Positions 35,385 to 49,125 of a stretch of DNA of 64,000 nucleotides are shown here, piece after piece. This DNA comes from Escherichia coli. Its GTDB lineage: Bacteria > Pseudomonadota > Gammaproteobacteria > Enterobacterales > Enterobacteriaceae. Under the pieces are notes generated by a model, which saw nothing but the letters and a program-made list of their open reading frames with translations, made no database searches and was not told the DNA's origin. The DNA is taken from NCBI RefSeq assembly GCF_036507355.1, contig NZ_AP027877.1. One strand, given 5' to 3'. The first letter of the stretch is position 1. Each line of letters opens with the position of its first letter. Both the position numbers and the translations under genes were made by a program.

Positions 35385-36077
35385 CTAGTGATAACCACGC
35401 GCGGTCATAAAATCCGTAATCGCTTTTTCTGCATCAACCAACACCTGTTCCAGTGGCTGATTGGCATCGATATCAACCAGTTGTGCACCACCAAAGGTTA
35501 ACTGTGGCGTTATGGCAATCTTCCTCGCCAGCGATTCCCGTTTATGGTCGGGTTTACGCATGCAGGCAACTTCAAGGTCAACATTGAGTTTGATGACCAG
35601 ATCAGGCTTATGGCTCGCCATCCAGTGAAACGCTTTACGTTCCTGGCTTGCCAGCCATGAGACAAAACGACCACCTTCAACGTTAGGTGGGAACACCGTA
35701 CCATCGTAAGCGCCAGGAATTTGGTCCTGAGGATAACGGTCGGTTAGAACAATTAACCCGCGACGACGACAGGCAAGCATATGACGAAAGCGCAGTAAGC
35801 GACGGGCGACAAACGCTGTAATTACCAGCGCCGGAACTGGTCCAGGCAATTTTTTTGCTGTTTTCACCTGATTTCGTTCAATTGTTTTATGTAAGGATTT
35901 TCCCATCAACGGTAATTTTGTCACTGCACGACCGACATTTCCGGCCTGTTTTCCTAAATGAACTCTTTCGGCAGCACCATATTTTTCGACAACGGTAATG
36001 AGATGTTCACACACCGTTGACTTGCCTGAACCATCGCTACCAATAACGGCAATTAATGGAGGTGTTATTGACTGCAT
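35385..36077 (-). CDS. yghT: P-loop kinase-like protein YghT (thymidylate/nucleoside-kinase-like fold)
   Basis: 230-aa ORF; Walker [13 protein letters not shown]-type motif LTDRYPQ, C-terminal RKPDH motif shared with YghS/YghR. Confidence 0.85.
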
Positions 36078-36155
36078 GAATATATCCTTTAATTTAAATA
36101 TCCATTAAAAATATTTATTTGGTTAATATGTTTTTATGAAAGCGTAATTCAGGTC

Positions 36156-36183
36156 AATGTCACAATTAACCATTGTCACAATA
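36156..36183. promoter_or_regulatory. Candidate operator in the yghT/yghS divergent promoter region
   Basis: AATGTCACAATT and the perfect 11-bp palindrome ATTGT-C-ACAAT lie 16 bp apart in an AT-rich 173-bp divergent intergenic region. Confidence 0.3.
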
Positions 36184-36250
36184 AGGTTGAACGGATATTC
36201 TGAGCACGGACCACGTAATATTCAATACATTATTTGCTGCCGGGTTTTTC

Positions 36251-36964
36251 GTGAATCAACGTAATATGTCAATAATTAATTCCACGCCAGTGCGTGTTAT
36301 TGCCATTGTAGGATGTGATGGTTCAGGTAAATCGACCCTCACGGCAAGCCTGGTAAATGAACTGGCAGCAAGAATACCAGCAGAACACATTTATCTCGGG
36401 CAATCGTCCGGGCGAATTGGCGAATGGATTTCACAGCTCCCTGTTATTGGCGCACCTTTTGGGCGTTATCTGCGAAGTAAAGCGGCACATGTGCACGAAA
36501 AGCCCTCAACACCGCCTGGCAATATTACTGCGCTGGTTATCTATCTGCTTTCCTGCTGGCGGGCGTACAAGTTTCGCAAAATGTTGTGTAGAAGCCAGCA
36601 AGGCCATCTGCTCATCACCGACCGCTACCCGCAGGTTGAAGTGCCGGGTTTTCGCTTTGATGGCCCGCAATTGGCAAAAACCACGGGCGGTAACGGTTGG
36701 ATAAAAATGTTAAGGCAGCGCGAGTTGAAGCTGTACCAATGGATGGCGTCTTATTTACCCGTATTGTTGATTCGTCTTGGCATTGATGAACAAACCGCGT
36801 TTGCGCGTAAACCTGACCACCAACTGGCAGCGTTACAGGAAAAAATCGCCGTTACGCCGCAACTGACATTCAATGGCGCAAAGATCCTTGAACTGGATGG
36901 TCGGCAACCAGCCGATGAAATTCTGCAAGCGTCACTACGCGCAATTCACGCCGCGCTTTCCTGA
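36251..36964 (+). CDS. yghS: P-loop kinase-like protein YghS (paralog of YghT/YghR)
   Basis: 237-aa ORF; Walker A GCDGSGKST, ITDRYPQ, ARKPDH motifs. Confidence 0.85.
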   Translation: MNQRNMSIINSTPVRVIAIVGCDGSGKSTLTASLVNELAARIPAEHIYLGQSSGRIGEWISQLPVIGAPFGRYLRSKAAHVHEKPSTPPGNITALVIYLLSCWRAYKFRKMLCRSQQGHLLITDRYPQVEVPGFRFDGPQLAKTTGGNGWIKMLRQRELKLYQWMASYLPVLLIRLGIDEQTAFARKPDHQLAALQEKIAVTPQLTFNGAKILELDGRQPADEILQASLRAIHAALS

Positions 36965-36995
36965 TCACCAAAATGGATAGGGGATGATTTAACGA

Positions 36996-37754
36996 ATGGA
37001 TGCACTACAAACACAAACTGTTATTAGTACAACCGCGCCGCAGCCCAACTACATTCCGGGGCTGATTGCGGTGGTCGGGTGTGATGGCACCGGTAAATCC
37101 ACACTGACCACCGACCTGGTGAAATCGCTGCAACAACACTGGCAAACCGAGCGGCGCTATCTGGGGCTGCTCTCCGGCGAAGACGGCGACAAAATCAAAC
37201 GATTGCCGTTGGTTGGCGTCTGGCTGGAACGGCGACTGGCGGCCAAATCCTCGAAAACCCAAAGCATGAAAACCAAATCTCCGGCGCTATGGGCGGCGGT
37301 GATTATGTACTGCTTCTCGCTGCGAAGAATGGCGAATCTACGCAAGGTTCAGCGACTGGCGCAAAGTGGCGTTCTGGTGGTCAGCGATCGCTTCCCGCAG
37401 GCTGAAATTTCGGGCTTTTATTATGATGGACCGGGGATTGGCGTCGAACGTGCGACCGGGAAAATAAGCATGTTTCTGGCGCAGCGCGAACGGCGTTTAT
37501 ACCAACAAATGGCGCAATATCGCCCGGAATTAATTATTCGCTTGGGCATTGATATTGAGACTGCCATCTCCCGCAAGCCTGACCATGACTATGCCGAGCT
37601 GCAGGACAAAATCGGTGTTATGTCGACGATTGGCTATAACGGCACAAAAATTCTTGAGATTGATTCCAGAGCGCCCTACAGCGAAGTGCTGGAACAGGCA
37701 CAGAAGGCGGTTTCTCTGGTTGCCATCGTTTCTGACCGCCGAAGTTTAACTTAA
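36996..37754 (+). CDS. yghR: P-loop kinase-like protein YghR (paralog of YghT/YghS)
   Basis: 252-aa ORF; Walker A GCDGTGKST, VSDRFPQ, SRKPDH motifs. Confidence 0.85.
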   Translation: MDALQTQTVISTTAPQPNYIPGLIAVVGCDGTGKSTLTTDLVKSLQQHWQTERRYLGLLSGEDGDKIKRLPLVGVWLERRLAAKSSKTQSMKTKSPALWAAVIMYCFSLRRMANLRKVQRLAQSGVLVVSDRFPQAEISGFYYDGPGIGVERATGKISMFLAQRERRLYQQMAQYRPELIIRLGIDIETAISRKPDHDYAELQDKIGVMSTIGYNGTKILEIDSRAPYSEVLEQAQKAVSLVAIVSDRRSLT

Positions 37755-37799
37755 GGCTGGCGGGATACTTTTTACTATCAACGATAAGGTCAGGCTGAA

Positions 37800-39149
37800 T
37801 TGGCGGGTTTTAACATCAAACATTGGTTTGCAGATGGCGCGTTTCGCACCATTATTCGCAATAGCGCCTGGTTAGGCTCCAGTAATGTCGTGAGCGCCTT
37901 GCTGGGTCTGTTGGCGCTCTCGTGTGCCGGTAAAGGGATGACGCCCGCCATGTTTGGCGTACTGGTGATTGTGCAATCGTACGCCAAGTCGATCAGCGAT
38001 TTTATTAAGTTTCAGACATGGCAGCTGGTGGTTCAGTACGGAACACCAGCATTAACCAACAATAATCCGCAGCAATTTCGCAATGTCGTCTCATTTTCCT
38101 TCTCGCTGGATATCGTCAGCGGCGCGGTGGCGATTGTCGGCGGCATTGCCTTACTGCCATTCCTTTCCCATTCATTAGGTCTGGATGACCAAAGCTTTTG
38201 GCTGGCGGCGCTGTATTGCACGTTCATTCCTTCAATGGCTTCCTCCACGCCGACCGGCATTCTGCGTGCGGTAGATCGCTTTGATTTGATTGCTGTACAG
38301 CAGGCGACGAAACCTTTTCTGCGCGCAGCGGGGAGCGTCGCAGCCTGGTATTTTGACTTTGGTTTTGCGGGTTTTGTTATTGCCTGGTACGTGTCGAATC
38401 TGGTTGGCGGCACCATGTACTGGTGGTTTGCCGCGCACGAATTACGCCGCAGAAATATCCATAACGCCTTCAAATTGAATCTGTTTGAGTCTGCCCGACA
38501 CATTAAAGGCGCGTGGAGTTTTGTCTGGTCAACCAACATTGCCCACTCCATCTGGTCGGCGCGTAACTCGTGCAGCACAGTGTTGGTGGGGATCGTGTTA
38601 GGACCCGCTGCCGCCGGGTTATTTAAAATCGCCATGACATTCTTCGATGCCGCCGGAACGCCAGCGGGTTTGCTGGGTAAAAGTTTTTACCCAGAGGTGA
38701 TGCGTTTAGATCCGCGCACCACCAGACCGTGGTTGTTAGGCGTGAAGTCCGGTTTACTGGCGGGCGGAATCGGTATTCTGGTGGCGCTCGCGGTGTTGAT
38801 CGTCGGCAAGCCGCTCATTTCGCTGGTGTTTGGCGTTAAGTATCTCGAAGCGTATGACCTGATTCAGGTGATGCTGGGCGCAATTGTGATCTCGATGCTG
38901 GGTTTCCCGCAGGAGTCATTGCTATTGATGGCGGGAAAACAGCGCGCTTTTCTCGTGGCGCAAACCATCGCCTCAATCGGCTACATCGTATTGCTGTTCA
39001 TGTTCTGTCATCTGTTTGGTGTGCTGGGAGCAGCGTTTGCTTACTTCGGTGGGCAATGTCTGGACGTGGCGCTCTCGTTAATTCCAACCTTAAAGGCATT
39101 TTTTCAGCGCCATTCCTTGCTTTATAACGCAGCCGGAGAGAAATCCTGA
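37800..39149 (+). CDS. yghQ: Polysaccharide-biosynthesis/MOP-flippase-family inner membrane protein YghQ (apparently full length)
   Basis: 449-codon ORF from a TTG at 37800 (true start may be an internal ATG); highly hydrophobic multi-TM protein; I recall K-12 YghQ as shorter. Confidence 0.8.
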   Translation: MAGFNIKHWFADGAFRTIIRNSAWLGSSNVVSALLGLLALSCAGKGMTPAMFGVLVIVQSYAKSISDFIKFQTWQLVVQYGTPALTNNNPQQFRNVVSFSFSLDIVSGAVAIVGGIALLPFLSHSLGLDDQSFWLAALYCTFIPSMASSTPTGILRAVDRFDLIAVQQATKPFLRAAGSVAAWYFDFGFAGFVIAWYVSNLVGGTMYWWFAAHELRRRNIHNAFKLNLFESARHIKGAWSFVWSTNIAHSIWSARNSCSTVLVGIVLGPAAAGLFKIAMTFFDAAGTPAGLLGKSFYPEVMRLDPRTTRPWLLGVKSGLLAGGIGILVALAVLIVGKPLISLVFGVKYLEAYDLIQVMLGAIVISMLGFPQESLLLMAGKQRAFLVAQTIASIGYIVLLFMFCHLFGVLGAAFAYFGGQCLDVALSLIPTLKAFFQRHSLLYNAAGEKS

Positions 39150-39973
39150 TGATGAGAAAATATTTCCCGCTTGAGGCGAGCGAGCATCTATTTGTTGCGA
39201 TTGAGGAAGATGATGTTGTTGATGCCCAGGTCAGTTTGCCGCCGACTATCGCACTAAGTTGTACCACCGAAATCATCCATGATAATTACGCGTTATGCCT
39301 GCAATTCTGGCTCAATGGCGTTGATCGTCAGGAATTACTTCGTTTAATTCGCAAACAAGCCAAAGGCGATGAGCTGACGACAGACGAGCGTAAACAGTTT
39401 AAATACATGCGAGCGCGCTACAAGCATCTACGTTTTGCACAACGGCTGTATTTAAAAAAGCATCAGGCCAGATTTTTATTCGGCAAAACGACCGTTTTTC
39501 TGGGACGTTTTCAGGACGGATTTCGTAACGGTAAGAAAAATATTGTGTCGTATTACGGCAACCTGTTACGAATTTATTTAAGCTCTCCGGTCTGGTCGTT
39601 GGTGAACTATTCATTACGCCATAGCCAGTTAGAAAGCGTAAGCGGTTTTATTGCCTATCGGCAAAAGCAAATGCATACCCTGAAAGAGATTATTGCCAAA
39701 CCGCGACTAACCGGCAGGGAATTTCATGATGTGCGAAAAATCATCAGCCAGCAGGTTTCTTATTACGACACCTTAAGATCGCTTGATCCTGAAAATAAAG
39801 AGGCGTTACAGATTTCCCGTTTCCTCGCCGCCATTAATGGCCTGATGGGGGATCAACACGACGACATGGTGGCGGATGATATGGAAAACCGCCAGTCGTA
39901 TGATGCACCGGTGGCGCTGGATAGCGATATTCGCCAGCGCTTAGAGCTGCTGATTTCGCGTTTTCCGCTATAA
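39149..39973 (+). CDS. Hypothetical basic protein (274 aa), no family recognised
   Basis: ATG overlaps the yghQ stop (TGATG), implying translational coupling; ORF MMRKYFPLEASEHLFVAIEEDDVV...; within a same-strand gene array. Confidence 0.65.
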   Translation: MMRKYFPLEASEHLFVAIEEDDVVDAQVSLPPTIALSCTTEIIHDNYALCLQFWLNGVDRQELLRLIRKQAKGDELTTDERKQFKYMRARYKHLRFAQRLYLKKHQARFLFGKTTVFLGRFQDGFRNGKKNIVSYYGNLLRIYLSSPVWSLVNYSLRHSQLESVSGFIAYRQKQMHTLKEIIAKPRLTGREFHDVRKIISQQVSYYDTLRSLDPENKEALQISRFLAAINGLMGDQHDDMVADDMENRQSYDAPVALDSDIRQRLELLISRFPL

Positions 39974-39981
39974 CCGGAGCA

Positions 39982-40545
39982 ATGATGTCATCTCGTTTGA
40001 TTATTGCGCTGATTATCATGCTCTTAGCCCCGGGTGTGCAGGCACACAATTTCGTCACTGGCAAAACGGTTACCCCTGTTTATATTCAGGAAGGCGGCGA
40101 GCTGCTTCTGAATAGCGACGACGAAATTCACTACCAAAAGTGGAACAGCACACAATTGGCGGGAAAAGTCCGAATTATCCAGTATATCGCCGGGCGTAAG
40201 TCGGCGAAGAAAAAGAACTCACTGTTAATTAAAGCGGTTGAAGCGGCAAACTTTCCGCAGGATCGTTTTCAGCCCACCACCATTGTGAACACCGATGATG
40301 CCATCTTTGGTACTGGCTATTTTGTTGTTGGCAAAATCGAAAAAAATAAACGCCACTATCCGTGGGCGCAATTCGTTATTGACGGCAATGGACAGGGACG
40401 CGTTGCCTGGCGCTTGCCGGAGCAGAGTTCAACCATTCTGGTGCTGAATAAAGCCGGGCAAATTCAGTGGGCAAAGGACGGCAGCCTGACGCCGGAAGAG
40501 GTAGATCATGTTATTGCGCTGGCGCAGAAACTGATCAATGAATAA
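39982..40545 (+). CDS. YtfJ-family periplasmic protein (paralog of E. coli YtfJ)
   Basis: 187-aa ORF with signal peptide; HNFVTGKTVTPVYIQEGGELLLNSDDEIHYQKWNSTQLAGKVRIIQYIAGR closely parallels my recollection of the YtfJ sequence. Confidence 0.7.
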   Translation: MMSSRLIIALIIMLLAPGVQAHNFVTGKTVTPVYIQEGGELLLNSDDEIHYQKWNSTQLAGKVRIIQYIAGRKSAKKKNSLLIKAVEAANFPQDRFQPTTIVNTDDAIFGTGYFVVGKIEKNKRHYPWAQFVIDGNGQGRVAWRLPEQSSTILVLNKAGQIQWAKDGSLTPEEVDHVIALAQKLINE

Positions 40546-40575
40546 AAAATTCAAAGGATTGAGGGCGTTAGTGAG

Positions 40576-41646
40576 ATGAAGCTGGTTGAACACTACATCA
40601 TGCGTGGTACGCGCCGTCTGGTGCTGATTATCGTCGGTTTTCTGATCTTTATTTTCGCCAGCTACTCCGCACAGCGTTATCTGACCGAAGCGGCAAATGG
40701 GACATTAGCTCTTGATGTTGTGCTGGATATCGTTTTCTACAAAGTGCTGATTGCACTGGAGATGTTGTTACCTGTTGGTCTGTATGTGTCAGTTGGCGTG
40801 ACGCTAGGGCAGATGTATACCGACTCGGAAATTACCGCTATCTCTGCGGCGGGGGGCAGTCCGGGACGCTTGTACAAAGCCGTTCTTTATCTGGCGATAC
40901 CGCTAAGTATTTTTGTCACCCTTCTGTCGATGTATGGTCGTCCGTGGGCTTATGCGCAGATTTATCAACTGGAGCAGCAGTCGCAGTCGGAGCTGGATGT
41001 TCGCCAGTTGCGGGCAAAGAAATTTAACACTAACGATAACGGACGAATGATCCTTTCGCAGACGGTTGATCAGGATAATAATCGCCTGACTGACGCGCTG
41101 ATTTATACTTCTACTGCCAATCGAACCCGCATTTTCCGCGCCCGTTCGGTTGATGTGGTTGACCCATCACCCGAGAAACCGACCGTTATGTTGCACAACG
41201 GCACTGCCTATCTTCTCGATCATCAGGGGCGTGACGACAACGAACAGATCTACCGTAATCTGCAATTACATCTGAATCCGCTGGATCAAAGCCCTAACGT
41301 CAAACGCAAAGCGAAATCGGTCACGGAGCTGGCGCGCTCCGTCTTTCCAGCCGATCATGCCGAACTGCAATGGCGACAAAGCCGTGGCCTGACCGCATTG
41401 TTGATGGCGCTGCTGGCCATTTCATTAAGTCGGGTAAAACCGCGGCAAGGGCGATTTTCAACATTATTGCCACTGACGTTGCTGTTTATTGCCATTTTTT
41501 ATGGCGGCGACGTCTGCCGTACGCTGGTGGCTAACGGCGCGATTCCCCTCATTCCTGGTTTGTGGTTAGTACCCGGACTCATGCTAATGGGCCTGCTGAT
41601 GCTGGTCGCACGCGACTTCTCTTTGCTGCAGAAATTTTCCCGATGA
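40576..41646 (+). CDS. LptF/LptG-family (YjgP/YjgQ) permease paralog 1
   Basis: 356-aa ORF; N-terminal TM segments; region LEMLLPVGLYVSVGVTLGQMYTDSEITAISAAG parallels the LptF motif [29 protein letters not shown] recalled from memory. Confidence 0.8.
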   Translation: MKLVEHYIMRGTRRLVLIIVGFLIFIFASYSAQRYLTEAANGTLALDVVLDIVFYKVLIALEMLLPVGLYVSVGVTLGQMYTDSEITAISAAGGSPGRLYKAVLYLAIPLSIFVTLLSMYGRPWAYAQIYQLEQQSQSELDVRQLRAKKFNTNDNGRMILSQTVDQDNNRLTDALIYTSTANRTRIFRARSVDVVDPSPEKPTVMLHNGTAYLLDHQGRDDNEQIYRNLQLHLNPLDQSPNVKRKAKSVTELARSVFPADHAELQWRQSRGLTALLMALLAISLSRVKPRQGRFSTLLPLTLLFIAIFYGGDVCRTLVANGAIPLIPGLWLVPGLMLMGLLMLVARDFSLLQKFSR

Positions 41647-42722
41647 ATGTTTTCAGTCGCTATTTAATCCGTCATCTCTTTCTCGGTTTTGCCGCCGCCG
41701 CAGGGCTATTGCTGCCGCTTTTTACCACCTTCAACCTGATTAACGAACTGGATGATGTCAGCCCGGGCGGTTATCGCTGGACTCAGGCGGTGCTGGTGGT
41801 GCTAATGACCTTACCGCGCACACTTGTCGAACTTTCGCCATTTATCGCCTTATTGGGAGGGATTGTCGGCCTGGGGCAGCTATCGAAAAACAGTGAGCTT
41901 ACCGCCATTCGCAGCACGGGGTTTTCTATCTTCCGTATTGCACTGGTGGCGCTGGTTGCCGGGATATTGTGGACTGTTTCGTTAGGCGCGATAGATGAGC
42001 GGGTAGCGTCGCCATTGCAGCAACAGGCGCTGCAAATCAAATCGACCGCCACCGCGTTGGGGGAGGACGATGACATTACCGGCAATATGCTGTGGGCCAG
42101 GCGCGGCAATGAATTTGTGACGGTGAAATCGCTGAATGAGCAGGGCCAGCCTGTGGGCGTGGAGATTTTTCATTATCGTGACGATCTCTCGCTCGAATCC
42201 TACATTTATGCACGCAGTGCCACCATTGAAGACGACAAAACGTGGATCCTGCATGGTGTGAATCATAAAAAATGGCTGAATGGCAAAGAAACGCTGGAAA
42301 CATTAGATAATCTTGCCTGGCAATCGGCCTTCACCAGTATGGATCTTGAAGAGCTATCGATGCCGGGGAATACTTTTTCTGTCCGTCAGCTTAATCATTA
42401 CATCCATTATTTGCAGGAAACCGGGCAACCCAGCAGCGAATACCGCCTTGCACTGTGGGAAAAACTGGGGCAACCCATCCTGACCCTGGCGATGATTTTG
42501 CTGGCTGTGCCGTTTACCTTTAGCGCCCCGCGCTCGCCAGGGATGGGTAGCCGTCTCGCTGTAGGCGTCATCGTTGGCTTACTCACCTGGATCAGCTATC
42601 AAATCATGGTCAATTTGGGATTGCTATTTGCGTTAAGCGCACCTGTTACCGCGCTCGGTTTACCGATAGCGTTTGTGCTGGTGGCGTTGAGCCTGGTGTA
42701 TTGGTATGACAGACAACATTAA
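41643..42722 (+). CDS. LptF/LptG-family (YjgP/YjgQ) permease paralog 2
   Basis: ORF 41562-42722 trimmed to ATG 41643 (MNVFSRYLIRHLFLGF..., 359 aa) overlapping the upstream stop (ATGA); same architecture as paralog 1. Confidence 0.8.
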   Translation: MNVFSRYLIRHLFLGFAAAAGLLLPLFTTFNLINELDDVSPGGYRWTQAVLVVLMTLPRTLVELSPFIALLGGIVGLGQLSKNSELTAIRSTGFSIFRIALVALVAGILWTVSLGAIDERVASPLQQQALQIKSTATALGEDDDITGNMLWARRGNEFVTVKSLNEQGQPVGVEIFHYRDDLSLESYIYARSATIEDDKTWILHGVNHKKWLNGKETLETLDNLAWQSAFTSMDLEELSMPGNTFSVRQLNHYIHYLQETGQPSSEYRLALWEKLGQPILTLAMILLAVPFTFSAPRSPGMGSRLAVGVIVGLLTWISYQIMVNLGLLFALSAPVTALGLPIAFVLVALSLVYWYDRQH

Positions 42723-42723
42723 A

Positions 42724-42750
42724 CCCGCCGTGGCGCAACACCACGGCGGG
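42724..42750. terminator. Hairpin between convergent operons (putative bidirectional terminator)
   Basis: CCCGCCGTGG-CGCAACA-CCACGGCGGG perfect 10-bp stem in the 34-bp gap between the two convergent stops. Confidence 0.5.
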
Positions 42751-42756
42751 CTCACA

Positions 42757-43929
42757 TTACTGCTTCAGAGTAGCAAATGCCTGAATGATGGCATCGATTT
42801 GCTCACGACTGTGGGCAGCGTTTACGCTACAGCGCAGCAGCGTGATGCCTGCAGGCGCGGCAGGTGGCAGGATAAGATTCACATAAACGCCCAGCGAAAT
42901 AAGCTCGCGCCAGATGCGTAAACCTTCCTCTTTCGAACCGATTATTACCGGCACTACCGGACTAATATGTGAACTTAACTCATAACTCAGCTTTTGCAGC
43001 CCGTCATACAGATGGTTGGCATTATCCATCAGTTTTTGCCGCAACTCTGGTTGAGTGGCAATGGTTCTTAACGACGAGCGCACGGTTGCAATGCAGGAAG
43101 GAGAAGGGGAGGCGGTAAAAATATACGGACGACTGCCGTAGCGCAGCACTTCCATCGCTTCCGAACCCACGGCAAAACCACCAATAGAAGCCAGGCTTTT
43201 ACTGAAGGTGCCAACGATAATATCCACATCATCTTCAACGCCAACGGCTTCAACCAGCCCGCGCCCCGTTGCGCCTAACACGCCAAACGAGTGAGCTTCA
43301 TCGACAATTAAATATCCGCCGAGACGACGTTTGATATCAACAATTTCCGCCAGCGGCGCAACGTCACCGAGCATACTGTAGATGCCCTCAACGATGATAA
43401 TCGCCTCTTTCGCCCGTTCACCGAGGCGAACCATGCGCCGTTCCAGATCTTTAGCATCGTTATGGCGGAAACGAATAATTTCCGCGCCACCGAGAGAACA
43501 GGCGTCATAAATACTGGCGTGGCTGTCAGCATCCAGTAACACCACGGCGTTATGGTCGGCAAGTGCGCTGATGACGCCTAAATTAGCGGTATAACCGGTT
43601 GAAAAAACGATAGCGGTAGGGCGATTGAAAAACTCAGCAATCTCTTTCTCTAACGCCAGATGCGGCGCATAACTGCCGTTTGCCATACGAGAACCGGTGG
43701 TGCCGGTGCCTTGGGCCGCTAACGCTGCCTGACCTTCGGCGATGGCATCATGATTGAAGGTTAATCCGAGATAATTATTGGTCCCGGCCAGAATCACTTT
43801 TTTATTGCCGATCCGGCCTTCGGTGGCGGAATACACTTCATCAATACAGGTGCCAAACGGTGTTAACCCGTTGTCACTAAATTGCAGACGCTCGCCAGCA
43901 AGGCGCGCATATTTATCGTATAGCCCCAT
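42757..43929 (-). CDS. PLP-dependent alpha-oxoamine synthase, serine-palmitoyltransferase-like
   Basis: 390-aa ORF; DEAHSFGVLG and GTFSKSLASIGGF (PLP-lysine motif of the AONS/SPT/KBL family); ATG overlaps the stop of the upstream ACP gene. Confidence 0.85.
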   Translation of the reverse strand: MGLYDKYARLAGERLQFSDNGLTPFGTCIDEVYSATEGRIGNKKVILAGTNNYLGLTFNHDAIAEGQAALAAQGTGTTGSRMANGSYAPHLALEKEIAEFFNRPTAIVFSTGYTANLGVISALADHNAVVLLDADSHASIYDACSLGGAEIIRFRHNDAKDLERRMVRLGERAKEAIIIVEGIYSMLGDVAPLAEIVDIKRRLGGYLIVDEAHSFGVLGATGRGLVEAVGVEDDVDIIVGTFSKSLASIGGFAVGSEAMEVLRYGSRPYIFTASPSPSCIATVRSSLRTIATQPELRQKLMDNANHLYDGLQKLSYELSSHISPVVPVIIGSKEEGLRIWRELISLGVYVNLILPPAAPAGITLLRCSVNAAHSREQIDAIIQAFATLKQ

Positions 43930-44177
43930 TATTTATTCTCCAGCCATGGAAGTAGAGTTTCCATTAATTGCGCAGGGGTTTTGACATCCAGCAGAATATT
44001 AATAGGAATGGAAATATCGAATCTGTCTTCCAGCATCATTAAGAGATCCATCACTTTGATCGACTCCAGGCCAAGATCGTTGACGAGATCGCTGTCGGGC
44101 TTAATTTCCACACCGTTTTCGACCAAATCCTGTAAACAGGAAAGGATGTAATCCATTACTATTTCACGATTTACCAT
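43929..44177 (-). CDS. Acyl carrier protein (dedicated, non-AcpP)
   Basis: 82-aa acidic ORF with DLGLESIKVMDL phosphopantetheine-attachment-type serine motif. Confidence 0.8.
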   Translation of the reverse strand: MVNREIVMDYILSCLQDLVENGVEIKPDSDLVNDLGLESIKVMDLLMMLEDRFDISIPINILLDVKTPAQLMETLLPWLENK

Positions 44178-44208
44178 AGAAACGTTAACACACCTTTAAA
44201 CAAGACAA

Positions 44209-45123
44209 TCAAAATAGCCCGTTGCGTAATGCGTGTTCCAGGCTAATCCCGGGAAACCAATTAATATCTTCAGAAATACGGTTATTACTTGCCGACCAGT
44301 CGGCGTGGGTTAATTCACGAATTTTCGAGCGGGTCAGCATAGGTTCTTTACCTGCCAGGCGACTCAACGCGGTACTGATATCCGCAAGGCAGGTGAGTAC
44401 CGGCAGAGGAATGCCAACCATTCGCACGGAACCACAACGGGCGTCGGCGGCAAGTTGCTGTACGCGTTGCCAGTCATAGCCGCCAGCGACGCCATCGCAT
44501 AATTCATAGGTTTGCGTCTGTACAGTTTCGGCGCTTAACCACTGACCCACTGCTTGCGCAAAATCGGTGACATGCAGGAAAGAGAGCTGTGTATCTGGTG
44601 CACCAAGTCGTGGCAGCAGGCCGCGCAGCATCCAGTCAAACAGCGGTTTTAACTCTTTATCGCCGGGACCATACACGGCTGTCGGGCGAAAAACGCCCAG
44701 CGTAATTTCGTCAGCCATTGCCGTCAGCCGTTGTTCGGCGACGTGTTTGGAATTTGCGTACCAGGAGAGCTCGGGATGGCGCGCCGCCAGCGAAGAGATA
44801 AACAGAAAACGTTGGCAAAAGCCGCTCTCTTTTGCTGCTTGCATCAGGCGCAGGCTGCCGTCAACGTTACAGTGGGTAAAAATCTCTTCTTTGTGTCCGC
44901 GCACTTGCCCGGCGCAATGGACCACCGCGCTGGCTCCGGCAACCAGTTCGCTAAGCGAATGTGTATCTTCCAGCGAACCGCGCACCCAAGTAAGATTATC
45001 ATTGACGTGAGCGCGGGCAGTACGCGTCAATGCGCGAACGTGAAAGCCGCGGGCGAGCAGGTTATCGATAATATATTTACCGATAAAACCGGTAGCGCCC
45101 GTCACCGCGACAGTTTGATTCAT
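44209..45123 (-). CDS. NAD(P)-dependent epimerase/dehydratase-family (extended SDR) reductase
   Basis: 304-aa ORF; N-terminal VTGATGFIGKYI Rossmann motif; YANSK (YxxxK) catalytic motif; start overlaps the upstream stop (ATGA). Confidence 0.8.
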   Translation of the reverse strand: MNQTVAVTGATGFIGKYIIDNLLARGFHVRALTRTARAHVNDNLTWVRGSLEDTHSLSELVAGASAVVHCAGQVRGHKEEIFTHCNVDGSLRLMQAAKESGFCQRFLFISSLAARHPELSWYANSKHVAEQRLTAMADEITLGVFRPTAVYGPGDKELKPLFDWMLRGLLPRLGAPDTQLSFLHVTDFAQAVGQWLSAETVQTQTYELCDGVAGGYDWQRVQQLAADARCGSVRMVGIPLPVLTCLADISTALSRLAGKEPMLTRSKIRELTHADWSASNNRISEDINWFPGISLEHALRNGLF

Positions 45124-46841
45124 GCCAGGGATTCCTGCACATGAAGGCTTGCAGCATAAGCCTTCTGATAACGTTTTTTCGCTTCCGCACGGGCAGGCTT
45201 GCCGGAGGACGTTCGGGGAATGCTGTGGGGCGGCAACAGATCGATAGCCGCGGTCACGCCAAATTCGCTTTGGATCCGTGCTGCCAGCGCGTGGATAAGC
45301 TGCCCGCGACGTTCTTCATCGCTGATCCGACACTGGATCTGCAAAATGATTTTTTCCTGGACGGTAACAAAAGCAATCGCATCGCCAGAATGAATTTCCG
45401 GTTCCTGTTCCGCTATATATTCAATATCCTGCGGCCAGATATTACGGCCACGAATAATAATCAGATCTTTAATGCGTCCGGTGACATACAGATAACCATC
45501 CAGCAGATAACCGAGGTCGCCAGTGTCTAACCAGCCCGTCGCGGCAATCTCGTCTTGCGAAGCCTGGTCGCCAAAGTAACCGCTCATCAGACTGGGACCG
45601 GAGATGCAAATATGGCCTACCACACGTTCCGCGACCGGCATACCTGCTTGATTGCGGATTTCAATACCATGTTCCGGCAACGCTTTGCCGCAGTTGACGA
45701 AAGTCGATACGGCGCGTGTCTCTGCACCCGGCGCGACGGCTTTACCCTGATATTCGAGGATGTCGCGATCCACTTCGTTAACTACAACCCCGGAGGCTTC
45801 ATCAGAGAAGCTGACAGCCAGCGCATTTTCTGCCAGGCCGTAGCACGGCATGAAAGTTTTATCGTCAAAGTTAACCTGACGGAAACATTCAGCGAATTGA
45901 TGGAGTTGTTCTGCGGAGATGGGTTCTGCACCAATACCAGCGACGCGCCAGCAGGAAAGATCCAGTTCAGCGAGATCTTTTTCATTCACGCGGCGCTGGC
46001 ACAATTCATAGCCAAACGGCGGCGCAACGGAAACGGTGCCGCGATTTTTACTGATCAATTTAAGCCATTGCAGAGGACGCATGGCAAAATCCTGAGTGCG
46101 CAAATAATCTACTGAAAGTTGCGTGGCGACGGGGGTCAGGAGAAAGCCGACCAGTCCCATATCATGGTAGAAAGGCAGCCAGGAGACGCAGCGGTCGCCA
46201 GGGCGTAATTTAATGCCGTCGTGGCTTATAGCACGTAGATTAGCCATCACTTCGCGATGGGTGATAATGACGCCACGGGGAAAACGGGTGCTGCCGGAGG
46301 TGTACTGGAGGTAGGCGATATCGTTCGGAACTGGACGCTGGAGCGCAACATCGGCTTCCGGTAATGCCTTAAACCAGGCGTGGCTTAAAACATGTAATTC
46401 GGGGTTGTCATGCGTCGCGGCATTGACCAGTGGCAACCACTCATCACCAGTGATAATGGCTGCGGGCTGGCAACTTGTCAGTAAACCCTGCAATTTGGCG
46501 CTCCAGGAATCCCGCTGACCAACGCCCATTGGAATCGCCAACGGGACGGCGACTAAGCCGGCATACTGGCAGGCAAAAAAAGCCTCTACGAACCCGCTAC
46601 TTGTTTCGGCAATCAGTGCCACGCGATCGCCTTTTTTCAGGTTCAGCGATAACAACCGCTTCGCACCAGCTTCGGCACGCGCTTTTAACGTCTGATATTC
46701 CAGTTGATCTTCAAGTTGGCAACGTCTGTCATAAAAATTCATTCCAGCGCTACTCAGAGCGGCGTAGTCCAAAGCATCAACCAGCGTTGGAAAATCGGCA
46801 TAGCGTATAGGTAGGGAATGCGTAAAGATTTTATTAGACAT
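45120..46841 (-). CDS. Fatty acyl-AMP ligase / acyl-ACP synthetase (adenylate-forming enzyme)
   Basis: ORF 45120-46850 (GTG) trimmed to ATG 46839-46841 (MSNKIFTHSL...); AMP-binding core motifs YTSGSTRFPRGV and TGDLGY...GRIKDLIIIRGRNI. Confidence 0.85.
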   Translation of the reverse strand: MSNKIFTHSLPIRYADFPTLVDALDYAALSSAGMNFYDRRCQLEDQLEYQTLKARAEAGAKRLLSLNLKKGDRVALIAETSSGFVEAFFACQYAGLVAVPLAIPMGVGQRDSWSAKLQGLLTSCQPAAIITGDEWLPLVNAATHDNPELHVLSHAWFKALPEADVALQRPVPNDIAYLQYTSGSTRFPRGVIITHREVMANLRAISHDGIKLRPGDRCVSWLPFYHDMGLVGFLLTPVATQLSVDYLRTQDFAMRPLQWLKLISKNRGTVSVAPPFGYELCQRRVNEKDLAELDLSCWRVAGIGAEPISAEQLHQFAECFRQVNFDDKTFMPCYGLAENALAVSFSDEASGVVVNEVDRDILEYQGKAVAPGAETRAVSTFVNCGKALPEHGIEIRNQAGMPVAERVVGHICISGPSLMSGYFGDQASQDEIAATGWLDTGDLGYLLDGYLYVTGRIKDLIIIRGRNIWPQDIEYIAEQEPEIHSGDAIAFVTVQEKIILQIQCRISDEERRGQLIHALAARIQSEFGVTAAIDLLPPHSIPRTSSGKPARAEAKKRYQKAYAASLHVQESLA

Positions 46842-46850
46842 ATACACCAC

Positions 46851-47211
46851 GAAAAAATTGGATATCCAAAATAAAATGACAATAATGCGGTGGATTATAT
46901 AGGCATAAAAGATAAATGAGATAGTATTTTCATCGGTGTGAAAATGAACATTGATTTAAATAATGAGTTTAAGTTTTTTGTTTTTATTGTGAATGATATT
47001 TAATTTATGAATATATTAAGAAGAAGCCTTGTCCGGTCGCCTTAAATCGACAAAAGGCATTGTGGCGCTTCTGCGTAGTCGCTGACCCTATCGTAATCAT
47101 TAATAAATACTATTTATTCGTCGTTTGTATTCATTGGGTTGATTATTAAGATGCCGTTCGTTGCTGTTGCAACCTGTTTTTCACCGTTAATTATTTGTTA
47201 TCCACAGAACT
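46851..47211. promoter_or_regulatory. AT-rich divergent promoter region between the FAAL operon and yghO
   Basis: 361-bp noncoding stretch, visibly AT-rich with A/T tracts (e.g. TTTAAATAATGAGTTTAAGTTTTTTGTTTTTATTGTGAATGATATTTAATTTATGAATATATTAAG), flanked by divergent starts. Confidence 0.4.
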
Positions 47212-48354
47212 ATGGAATGCGATCTGCTGATGATCAAAATTGAAAAAGTAATTAATAAAAATGACCTTAAGGCATTTATTGCTTTTCCGTCATCACTTTA
47301 TCCCGATGATCCAAACTGGATACCCCCTTTATTCATTGAACGCAGCGAGCATTTGTCTGCGAAGAATCCGGGGACGGACCATATCATCTGGCAGGCGTGG
47401 GTGGCAAAAAAAGCGGGGCAGATAGTTGGGCGTATTACCGCGCAAATAGATACCTTACACCGCGAGTGTTACGGCGAAGATACCGGTCATTTCGGCATGA
47501 TTGACGCCATTGATGATCCGCAGGTTTTTGCCGCGTTGTTTGGCGCAGCGGAAGCGTGGTTGAAGTCACAAGGTGCAAGTAAGATCAGCGGGCCTTTCAG
47601 CCTGAATATCAATCAGGAAAGCGGATTACTGATTGAAGGTTTTGACACACCACCCTGTGCGATGATGCCACACGGCAAACCGTGGTATGCCGCGCATATT
47701 GAACAACTGGGTTATCACAAAGGCATTGATTTACTGGCGTGGTGGATGCAGCGAACCGATCTCACTTTCTCTCCGGCGCTAAAAAAACTGATGGTTCAGG
47801 TGCGCAAAAAGGTGACCATTCGCTGCATCAATCGCCAGCGGTTTGCCGAAGAGATGCAGATCCTGCGTGAGATTTTCAACTCTGGCTGGCAGCACAACTG
47901 GGGATTTGTGCCGTTTACCGAACATGAATTCGCGACCATGGGCGACCAACTTAAATATCTGGTGCCGGACGATATGATCTACATCGCTGAGATTGATTCT
48001 GCACCTTGCGCGTTTATTGTCGGCTTGCCAAACATCAACGAGGCGATTGCCGATCTGAACGGATCGCTCTTTCCCTTCGGCTGGGCAAAATTGCTGTGGC
48101 GTTTGAAAGTCAGCGGTGTGCGAACTGCGCGAGTACCGCTGATGGGCGTGCGCGACGAGTATCAGTTCAGCCGCATCGGCCCGGTGATTGCGCTGTTATT
48201 GATTGAAGCCTTACGCGATCCGTTTGCCCGCCGGAAGATCGATGCGCTGGAGATGTCATGGATCCTCGAAACCAATACAGGCATGAATAACATGCTGGAA
48301 CGCATTGGGGCGGAGCCGTACAAGCGTTACCGATTGTATGAAAAGCAGATTTAA
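47212..48354 (+). CDS. yghO: YghO-family protein, putative GNAT-like N-acyltransferase, intact
   Basis: 380-aa ORF MECDLLMIKIEKVINKNDLKAFIAFPSSLYPDDPNWIPPLF...; recognised as YghO family, which I recall as a disrupted pseudogene in K-12; acyltransferase assignment is from family knowledge, not from motifs I can verify. Confidence 0.7.
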   Translation: MECDLLMIKIEKVINKNDLKAFIAFPSSLYPDDPNWIPPLFIERSEHLSAKNPGTDHIIWQAWVAKKAGQIVGRITAQIDTLHRECYGEDTGHFGMIDAIDDPQVFAALFGAAEAWLKSQGASKISGPFSLNINQESGLLIEGFDTPPCAMMPHGKPWYAAHIEQLGYHKGIDLLAWWMQRTDLTFSPALKKLMVQVRKKVTIRCINRQRFAEEMQILREIFNSGWQHNWGFVPFTEHEFATMGDQLKYLVPDDMIYIAEIDSAPCAFIVGLPNINEAIADLNGSLFPFGWAKLLWRLKVSGVRTARVPLMGVRDEYQFSRIGPVIALLLIEALRDPFARRKIDALEMSWILETNTGMNNMLERIGAEPYKRYRLYEKQI

Positions 48355-48360
48355 TACCAG

Positions 48361-49125
48361 CTAACTCAGGTTCATCTCCAGCGGCACCGCCGAGCGAATC
48401 AAATGGTGGCCTTCCAGCTCGATATCGTGGAGATTCTTTTTCACGGTCCGCACATGATCGCGTGCTGCGCGCTGGGCGACGTGCGGCAGCCGCTGCAACA
48501 CCGCGTTGTAGATCCGCGCATGCTGGCGATCGATCTGCTTTTTTTGCTGTGGTCGATGGTAGAGATTATTTACGCTGGCAAACACTGAATTAAACATCAG
48601 ATCGGTCAATGATTGCAGCGTAAACACCAACACCTGATTGTGAGAAGCCTGACAAATGGCGAGATGGAAAGCGTGATCCAACTGCGCATGTTCGATCAGC
48701 GAAATCTCTTTGTTGTTCTCACTGGCGGCGAGCATTTTTTCATAACAGCGGGTTATCACAACAAAATCAGCCTGGGTTCCCAGCGTTGCCGCAAGCCTTG
48801 CCGATTCGCCCTCCAGCAATGCGCGAACGTCGAGCAGATCATACAGCGTTCGCGGCTGCGTACTGAACAGATGGATCAGCGGGCTGGTGTCCTGCACCCG
48901 ATTAAGCCGTGCGACACGAGAATCGCGACCCTGCGCCGTTTCAATAATCCCGCGCCCGCGCAGCACGGTCAGCCCTTCACGCAGTGCGGAGCGTGAGAAC
49001 CCGAGCTTTTCACACAGTCGACGTTCCGAGGGAAGCGGCTGACCGACCTTCAGTACGCCGTCGATAATTAACCGTTCGATACTCTCTGCAACCACTTCGC
49101 AAATAGGGCGACGTTCATCTTTCAT
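48361..49125 (-). CDS. glcC: GntR/FadR-family transcriptional activator of the glc operon
   Basis: ORF 48361-49185 trimmed to ATG (MKDERRPICEVVAESIERLIIDG..., 254 aa); recognised as GlcC. Confidence 0.9.
   Translation of the reverse strand: MKDERRPICEVVAESIERLIIDGVLKVGQPLPSERRLCEKLGFSRSALREGLTVLRGRGIIETAQGRDSRVARLNRVQDTSPLIHLFSTQPRTLYDLLDVRALLEGESARLAATLGTQADFVVITRCYEKMLAASENNKEISLIEHAQLDHAFHLAICQASHNQVLVFTLQSLTDLMFNSVFASVNNLYHRPQQKKQIDRQHARIYNAVLQRLPHVAQRAARDHVRTVKKNLHDIELEGHHLIRSAVPLEMNLS

Follow-up and report, generated by a model that had tools for sequence, protein, structure and literature searches.

YghO is the likely bacterial ceramide synthase orthologue of E. coli

We analyzed a 64,000-nt stretch of Escherichia coli DNA (contig NZ_AP027877.1 of assembly GCF_036507355.1; hereafter, the window) that carries an intact yghO gene at 47212..48354 on the + strand. 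We conclude that its product is likely the E. coli orthologue of the Caulobacter bacterial ceramide synthase, bCerS (CC_1154/CCNA_01212). This assignment as a tandem-GNAT N-acyltransferase is based on the open reading frame (ORF), the fold of an AlphaFold (AF2) model, and 44% identity to a syntenic orthologue. It is already known, having been published in 2022 by Padilla-Gomez et al. (Front Microbiol, PMC9386255). Specialist papers since 2022 recognize the gene cluster, genome annotation has yet to follow, and the practical value of the present analysis is annotation correction, not discovery.

YghO aligned end to end with a Caulobacteraceae protein (P0271), with 44% identity over 375 positions (E=2e-108). 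At the locus that encodes P0271 (L076), the genes are ordered fatty acyl-AMP ligase (FAAL), short-chain dehydrogenase/reductase (SDR), acyl carrier protein (ACP), serine palmitoyltransferase (Spt), a fused LptF2/G2 ORF, and the YghO homologue. Three C. crescentus accounts give the same order, in which CCNA_01223 (acps), 01222 (cerR), 01221 (acp), and 01220 (spt) are followed by 01214/01213 (lptF2/G2) and 01212 (bcerS) (PMC9393093; PMC11324152; 10.64898/2026.04.12.717747), and P0271 is therefore in the bCerS (CC_1154) position. Table S2 of PMC9386255 reports 44% identity (1e-107, 98% coverage) between CC_1154 and yghO ECD_02850, as well as 34% identity (7e-38) between CC_1164 and the SDR ECD_02852, and the legend to Fig. 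9 of that paper reads "aca: CC_1154, yghO ECD_02850". The original prediction had proposed a ceramide-synthase-like role by analogy; the full-length homology to a protein in the bCerS position and the published table support this role beyond analogy.

Other characteristics of YghO parallel those of Caulobacter bCerS (also called CerS or "Aca"; CC_1154 = CCNA_01212). The identity extends over the whole of proteins of ~375-385 amino acids, the YghO model contains no transmembrane segments, and YghO is accompanied by spt, acpR, aasR, cerR, and lptF2/G2 while belonging to its own transcription unit apart from the de novo genes. Likewise, PMC11324152 places Caulobacter cerS in a separate operon from the de novo genes. 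In contrast, Caulobacter bCerS is the only one of the two enzymes with demonstrated activity, and the E. coli cluster lacks the ceramide-phosphoglycerate head-group genes of Caulobacter (CC_1159 to CC_1161) and carries instead yghQRST and genes for a 274-aa protein and a YtfJ-like protein.

YghO is predicted to be a tandem GNAT acyltransferase

The AF2 model of YghO, built from an 83-sequence alignment, had a mean predicted local distance difference test (pLDDT) score of 96.5 and a predicted template modeling (pTM) score of 0.93. It shows a GNAT alpha/beta fold throughout, arranged as two GNAT domains at approximately residues 1-175 and 195-374. A Foldseek search of this model against the PDB returned 284 matches at E<=1e-3, with tandem-repeat GNATs on top. 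The leading matches were 2WPW/2WPX (a tandem GNAT of the clavulanate pathway, E=1.5e-15), 5KF1 (a glucosamine N-acetyltransferase), and 7Q3A (MAB_4324), and further top matches included the mycothiol synthase MshD (1OZP/2C27), VipF, Eis, and FemX. We conclude that YghO, as modeled, is a tandem GNAT acyltransferase. The suggestion of a GNAT-type enzyme, which could not be verified by eye when it was made, is thereby borne out; the acyltransferase core is present in the model, and the regulator fold that had been named as the contrary outcome is not.

Profile searches gave a mixed answer to the same question. YghO alone had no Pfam match even at E<=10 and no NCBIfam match, and a phmmer search against PDB sequences returned nothing meaningful. 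At the level of the family, PF00583 was matched by 6 of the 83 aligned members at E<=1e-3 and by 29 of the 83 at E<=0.1. Thus, the place of YghO in the GNAT superfamily derives from structure and not from the profile. This family is large, with 6449 relatives at E<=1e-3 and 1113 at E<=1e-30 in an exhaustive HMMER search of 50%-identity clusters, and its members are full-length proteins of ~370-400 amino acids. In the family profile, the segment R301-V-P-L-M-G306-V-R aligned weakly (E ~0.02-0.03) with motif A of 3TT2 and 2GE3, and the invariant or near-invariant residues G306, E341, W344, N349, K365, and Y367 all fall in the C-terminal domain, close to one another. Because of this distribution of invariant residues and the analogy with tandem GNATs, the C-terminal half is probably catalytic and the place where the acyl thioester binds, with the N-terminal domain probably contributing to the lipid site.

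The names attached to this family point elsewhere. RefSeq uses "protein YghO", and other family entries are called "N-acetyltransferase", "DNA-binding transcriptional regulator", "DNA-binding protein", or "dATP pyrophosphohydrolase"; UniProt/AFDB labels for relatives include "DNA-binding regulator" and "dATP pyrophosphohydrolase", and "dATP pyrophosphohydrolase [Caulobacteraceae]" is a name found among the best 120 matches to the Caulobacteraceae orthologue. YghO was also included in a lysine acetyltransferase screen of putative E. coli GNATs. These labels and this screen would fit a DNA-binding regulator, a dATP pyrophosphohydrolase, or an acetyltransferase of a general kind that modifies proteins or small molecules and has no connection with the lipid operon. 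However, the confident GNAT fold leaves no place in the model for a helix-turn-helix or Nudix element, neither of which is present, and YghO had no Pfam match to DNA-binding or Nudix families. In the acetyltransferase screen, YghO was not among the GNATs that gave acetylated bands, and the K-12 clone that was used had a chimeric N-terminus. Moreover, a regulator or unrelated enzyme would leave the synteny with sphingolipid genes unexplained. We consider all of these alternatives highly improbable and close to refuted.

The comparison with enzymes of known structure indicates both what YghO shares with them and where it departs. Like 2WPW/2WPX, 1OZP/2C27, 7Q3A, 5KF1, Eis, and FemX, the model consists of two fused GNAT domains (Foldseek E of 1e-15 to 1e-9, TM scores of 0.5-0.7), and the predicted reaction of YghO, in which an acyl thioester donates its acyl group to an amine, is of the type that these enzymes carry out. 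However, the identities are only 9-13% and the root-mean-square deviations 5-8 A, and the solved tandem GNATs modify small polar acceptors with an acetyl or aminoacyl group rather than acylating a lipid base with a long chain. With the eukaryotic ceramide synthases (Lag1p/CerS), YghO would share acyl-CoA-dependent N-acylation of a sphingoid base. In fold and topology, the two are unrelated. Lag1p/CerS are polytopic proteins of the endoplasmic reticulum membrane with a TLC domain, whereas YghO is modeled as a soluble alpha/beta GNAT protein and had no Pfam match to a Lag1/TLC domain. The title of a 2022 Nat Chem Biol paper attributes the bacterial and eukaryotic ceramide synthases to convergent evolution.

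Sphingolipid genes accompany yghO homologues in other bacteria

The divergent arrangement of yghO and FAAL-SDR-ACP-Spt recurs in Serratia liquefaciens and Pluralibacter gergoviae. By contrast, the outer neighbor of yghO differs, being dgkA or usp in Serratia/Pluralibacter and glcC in E. coli. For a broader scan of genome context, a 12-sequence subset of the alignment was used, with one genome per species, which gave 80 loci from alpha-, beta-, gamma-, and deltaproteobacteria, 53 of them with full 10-kb flanks, against which the window proteins were run by tblastn. Spt was encoded within 10 kb of the YghO homologue at 24 of the 53 full-flank loci, and at least one of Spt, FAAL, SDR, and LptF2/G2 at 49 of the 53, fractions that are descriptive and do not come from independent loci. 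A divergent FAAL neighbor was kept at 15 of the 80 loci. Together, the conserved divergent pairing and the sphingolipid genes at 49 of 53 loci bear out the link between yghO and the lipid operon that had been drawn from the window alone. At the Nitrosomonas-type loci, LptF2/G2 are encoded directly downstream of the YghO homologue and spt lies elsewhere, an arrangement already published for N. eutropha (PMC9386255).

In a 940-aa metagenomic protein (P0190; L087 8001-10823), a complete YghO-like module is fused with a fatty acyl-AMP ligase, and its gene adjoins that of a glycosyltransferase resembling monogalactosyldiacylglycerol (MGDG) synthase. We downgraded this fusion as Rosetta-stone evidence; it was found on a sole contig full of split genes and may be an assembly or frameshift artifact.

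yghO is conserved and under purifying selection, with losses in particular strains

The window yghO is an ATG-initiated ORF of 380 amino acids with zero internal stops, and its alignments to homologues span 98-100% of its length, in agreement with the full-length ORF originally described. A megablast search of 5426 complete E. coli genomes detected the gene in 4548, at 95-99% identity and as a single copy in each. The ratio of nonsynonymous to synonymous substitution rates (dN/dS) was 0.06-0.10 between E. coli alleles and ~0.06 in comparison with Pluralibacter; the allele of E. coli O145 RM9872 was excluded, since its internal stop makes the value artefactual in a codon alignment. The presence of yghO in 4548 genomes and these low ratios place the ORF far beyond chance, and we conclude that yghO is under purifying selection.

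The translation start is probably internal to the annotated one. Orthologues in other Enterobacterales are ~80% identical to YghO and nearly all 374 amino acids long, and the N-termini of the Serratia (MIHIEQV) and Pluralibacter (MIRIEKV) proteins align with Met7 of the window ORF. Because these N-termini are in register with Met7, we place the likely true start at nt 47230. RefSeq keeps the longer form, which starts upstream of Met7.

K-12 strains lack most of the cluster. In the K-12 genomes, the match to the window ORF begins at nt 41, with the first 40 nt of yghO gone and an IS5 transposase gene directly upstream of the remnant. Alignment of the K-12 lesion (L002 4738-8103) with the window (37800-47251) showed a single IS5 between a truncated yghQ and a 5'-truncated yghO; the 3' end of yghQ, the entire LptF2/G2-Spt-AcpR-SDR-FAAL block, and the 5' end of yghO are missing. 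From this single IS5 flanked by two truncated genes, we conclude that the K-12 lesion is an IS5-associated deletion of ~8-9 kb in which all of the genes for synthesis and export were lost. The N-terminus of K-12 YghO derives from IS5 (MISYQGLVRTF...), and the resulting chimeric IS5-yghO ORF (378 aa) is an ordinary coding sequence in the RefSeq record that we examined. Accordingly, the earlier statement that K-12 carries a disrupted yghO was essentially right about the damage, a 5' truncation with IS5 upstream, and at odds with that record in calling the gene a pseudogene. The damage in O145 RM9872, the E. coli genome closest to the window at yghO (99.2%), is of another kind, an internal stop in yghO (L001 14001-15143). 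The glcF gene of the same strain is frameshifted (L001 18727-19948); both yghO and glcF are intact ORFs in the window.

The biosynthetic gene spt was found in 4134 of the 5426 complete E. coli genomes and was missing from ~24%. Thus, we conclude that the sphingolipid locus is near-core and maintained in E. coli, though single strains have lost yghO function or the whole cluster.

Losses of this kind would be expected if the pathway were cryptic or dispensable, with a conserved locus that is mostly silent and an intact YghO that has no practical role. The K-12 deletion without obvious defect, the internal stop in the O145 gene, and the genomes that lack spt are consistent with such a reading, as is the observation that BL21 controls made no extra lipid (PMC9386255). 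The AT-rich region between yghO and the FAAL gene could, in addition, be silenced. However, the locus is present in 76-84% of the 5426 genomes at 95-99% identity, dN/dS is 0.06-0.10, and YghO is ~80% identical across genera of Enterobacterales with synteny kept. Since presence, low dN/dS, and cross-genus conservation are signatures of function under selection, we regard a cryptic or dispensable pathway as quite unlikely.

Several points nonetheless weigh against our assignment of YghO as the ceramide synthase of a working pathway. K-12 lives without the pathway, and some strains, such as O145 RM9872, carry yghO as a pseudogene. BL21 with empty vectors or single genes showed the same lipid profile by thin-layer chromatography, and under those conditions the chromosomal cluster produced no extra lipid (PMC9386255). 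Our search of the literature found no enzymatic or lipidomic report on YghO or on a native E. coli sphingolipid. Our direct comparison used the syntenic orthologue from a Caulobacteraceae metagenome-assembled genome (MAG), together with the published table, rather than the C. crescentus protein itself, and the GNAT call draws on the fold and the family-level signal. Finally, the 80 loci of the context scan were the top matches for a single Nitrosomonas-like query, and roughly one third of them belong to Nitrosomonadaceae. At 4 of the 53 loci with full flanks, the 10 kb on either side contain no sphingolipid gene.

Proposed role of YghO in sphingolipid synthesis

The first two steps of the proposed pathway have been shown by others for the E. 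coli proteins. AasR, the FAAL, activates a fatty acid by adenylation and transfers it to AcpR, and Spt joins the acyl-AcpR and serine to form 3-ketosphinganine. AcpR of BL21(DE3) (ECD_02853) bears 4'-phosphopantetheine, and co-expression or overexpression of BL21 AasR(Ec) (ECD_02851), AcpR(Ec), and SPT(Ec) (ECD_02854) led to 3-oxo-sphinganine (PMC9386255). In the third step, which we propose from orthology, YghO would move a second acyl chain from an acyl thioester to the C2 amine of the base. By analogy with Caulobacter bCerS, the donor would be acyl-CoA, and the enzyme is expected to be cytoplasmic, either soluble or peripherally bound to the membrane. The SDR (CerR) would then reduce the 3-oxo group to give dihydroceramide, and YghQ would probably flip the lipid, with LptF2/G2 extracting it from the inner membrane. 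Here, the order of the steps, the acyl donor, and export are what we infer.

Published work on Caulobacter bears on the acceptor. There, bCerS is reported to N-acylate both 3-oxo-sphinganine and sphinganine, and localization data favor acylation before reduction. By analogy, the preferred acceptor of YghO is probably 3-ketosphinganine, acylated before reduction, which would set the bacterial route apart from the eukaryotic order. With respect to export, Caulobacter LptF2/G2/C2 are required for sphingolipid transport (10.64898/2026.04.12.717747). We saw no LptC2-like gene in the E. coli cluster.

Alternatively, YghO could act in the same pathway with different chemistry, taking its acyl chain from acyl-AcpR instead of acyl-CoA or acylating another amine, for example that of a modified long-chain base or of a head group particular to the enterobacterial cluster and its yghQRST genes. 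The FAAL gene is the tightest conserved neighbor of yghO (divergent in Enterobacterales and at 15 of 80 other loci), the 940-aa metagenomic protein P0190 joins a YghO-like module to a FAAL, and the E. coli-type cluster has other accessory genes in place of the Caulobacter head-group genes, all of which would suit a different donor or acceptor. Yet the 44% full-length identity to the bCerS orthologue and the single copy per genome argue for the same reaction, the Caulobacter enzyme is reported to act on the two sphingoid bases named above, and P0190 comes from one contig of fragmented genes that may reflect frameshifts. On balance, different chemistry appears unlikely, and we favor the bCerS reaction for YghO.

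E. coli is the textbook bacterium with three major phospholipids and lipopolysaccharide. Most strains besides K-12 carry a complete and selectively maintained cluster for sphingolipid synthesis and export, in which YghO is predicted to supply the missing acylation step. We put forward tentatively, as somewhat less than an even prospect, that in most natural E. coli (~3/4 of complete genomes), and in many Enterobacterales besides, the envelope contains a ceramide-based lipid made under conditions that laboratory culture does not reproduce, with YghO as its ceramide synthase, LptF2/G2 as its exporters, and a head group that depends on yghQRST and is unlike that of Caulobacter. If this were true, the K-12 IS5 deletion would have kept an entire class of lipids out of sight in E. 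coli biology, and a ceramide-type envelope lipid in most wild E. coli would be of considerably greater interest than the orthology assignment. In a narrower variant, the acyl chain for YghO would come from acyl-AcpR made by the adjacent FAAL and not from acyl-CoA.

Organization of the gene cluster around yghO

Clustering of five dihydroceramide genes in C. crescentus and E. coli BL21 has been described (PMC9386255), and the "sphingolipid operons" of E. coli UTI89 appear beside those of Caulobacter and Sphingomonas in Fig. 2B of a preprint from 2026 (10.64898/2026.04.12.717747). In the window, the AasR(FAAL)-CerR(SDR)-AcpR-Spt genes form a four-gene operon transcribed divergently from yghO, all on the - strand. 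AasR (45120..46850), a fatty acyl-AMP ligase that serves as a specialized acyl-ACP synthetase and is the orthologue of ECD_02851, matched NCBIfam NF006624 with 873.5 bits (cutoff 600), in agreement with RefSeq. The CerR-like 3-oxo reductase (44209..45123), the orthologue of ECD_02852, is an SDR of the NAD-dependent epimerase/dehydratase type according to its family match and RefSeq. AcpR (43929..44177), a specialized acyl carrier protein of 82 amino acids and the orthologue of ECD_02853, was identified by ACP family matches. Spt (42757..43929), an alpha-oxoamine synthase and the orthologue of ECD_02854, matched NCBIfam NF047599 with 595.6 bits (cutoff 500) and is named "spt" in RefSeq. The identical gene order, including a named "spt", is annotated by RefSeq in the 99.2%-identical O145 strain.

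The intergenic region between yghO and the FAAL gene (46851..47211; 361 nt) is presumed to hold both promoters, and its GC content is ~38-39%, compared to ~52% in the genes. A consensus scan of the region found 3 promoter-like sites, compared to 3.5 expected from shuffled sequence, and a repeat search detected no notable repeats. Therefore, of the shared promoter region and co-regulation first suggested, the divergent geometry and its conservation stand, and co-regulation is unsupported by a promoter scan that does not rise above the shuffled background. The length of the spacer depends on where the FAAL gene starts. Its longest ORF begins at GTG (576 aa), the RefSeq start in the O145 strain lies 14 codons later (562 aa, ~nt 46808), and the RefSeq proteins of O99:H6 and Nissle have 574 and 573 amino acids; because these starts vary, the length of the divergent spacer is uncertain within 361-403 nt.

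On the other side of yghO, glcC is convergent, with 6 nt between the two stop codons (48352-48363), and our scan of this junction found no terminator-like hairpin. The GC content of the cluster is ordinary for E. coli and therefore gives no sign of a recent island.

Beyond the operon, the + strand encodes LptF2/G2, a YtfJ-family protein, the 274-aa protein, YghQ (a MOP/Polysacc_synt flippase-like protein), and the P-loop paralogues YghR/S/T. LptF2 (40576-41646, +) and LptG2 (41643-42722, +) are second-copy permeases and candidate sphingolipid exporters, identified as a pair by matches to TIGR04407/TIGR04408. They exceed the NCBIfam equivalog cutoffs for LptF/LptG (318 bits against 230 and 305 bits against 240), which is why RefSeq gives them the plain names "lptF" and "lptG"; this naming of sphingolipid-locus paralogues is likely a systematic over-annotation.

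The accessory genes occupy 35385..40545 and comprise yghT (-), yghS, yghR, yghQ, and the genes for the 274-aa and YtfJ-family proteins, as determined by family searches and RefSeq. Serratia, Pluralibacter, and a betaproteobacterial MAG (L041) also have such genes beside the cluster, and their products may contribute flipping or head-group modification. The products of yghT (-), yghS, and yghR (35385-37754) are P-loop paralogues labeled "dTMP kinase" or "ATP-binding protein" in databases, and they accompany the spt cluster in Serratia and the same MAG; they could be lipid or head-group kinases particular to this type of cluster. We rejected the idea that they correspond to the Caulobacter ceramide kinase, since CC_1160 is a diacylglycerol-kinase-type protein with transmembrane helices and not a P-loop, thymidylate-kinase-like protein, and since they had zero tblastn matches in the Caulobacteraceae locus L076. 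Between yghQ and lptF2 lie the genes for the 274-aa protein (39149-39973), which had no Pfam or NCBIfam family, and for a secreted YtfJ-family protein (39982-40545). The 274-aa protein has homologues (50-62% identical) in Serratia and Pluralibacter, where the gene adjoins the cluster, and in Luteibacter, where it lies ~10 kb from that of the YghO homologue.

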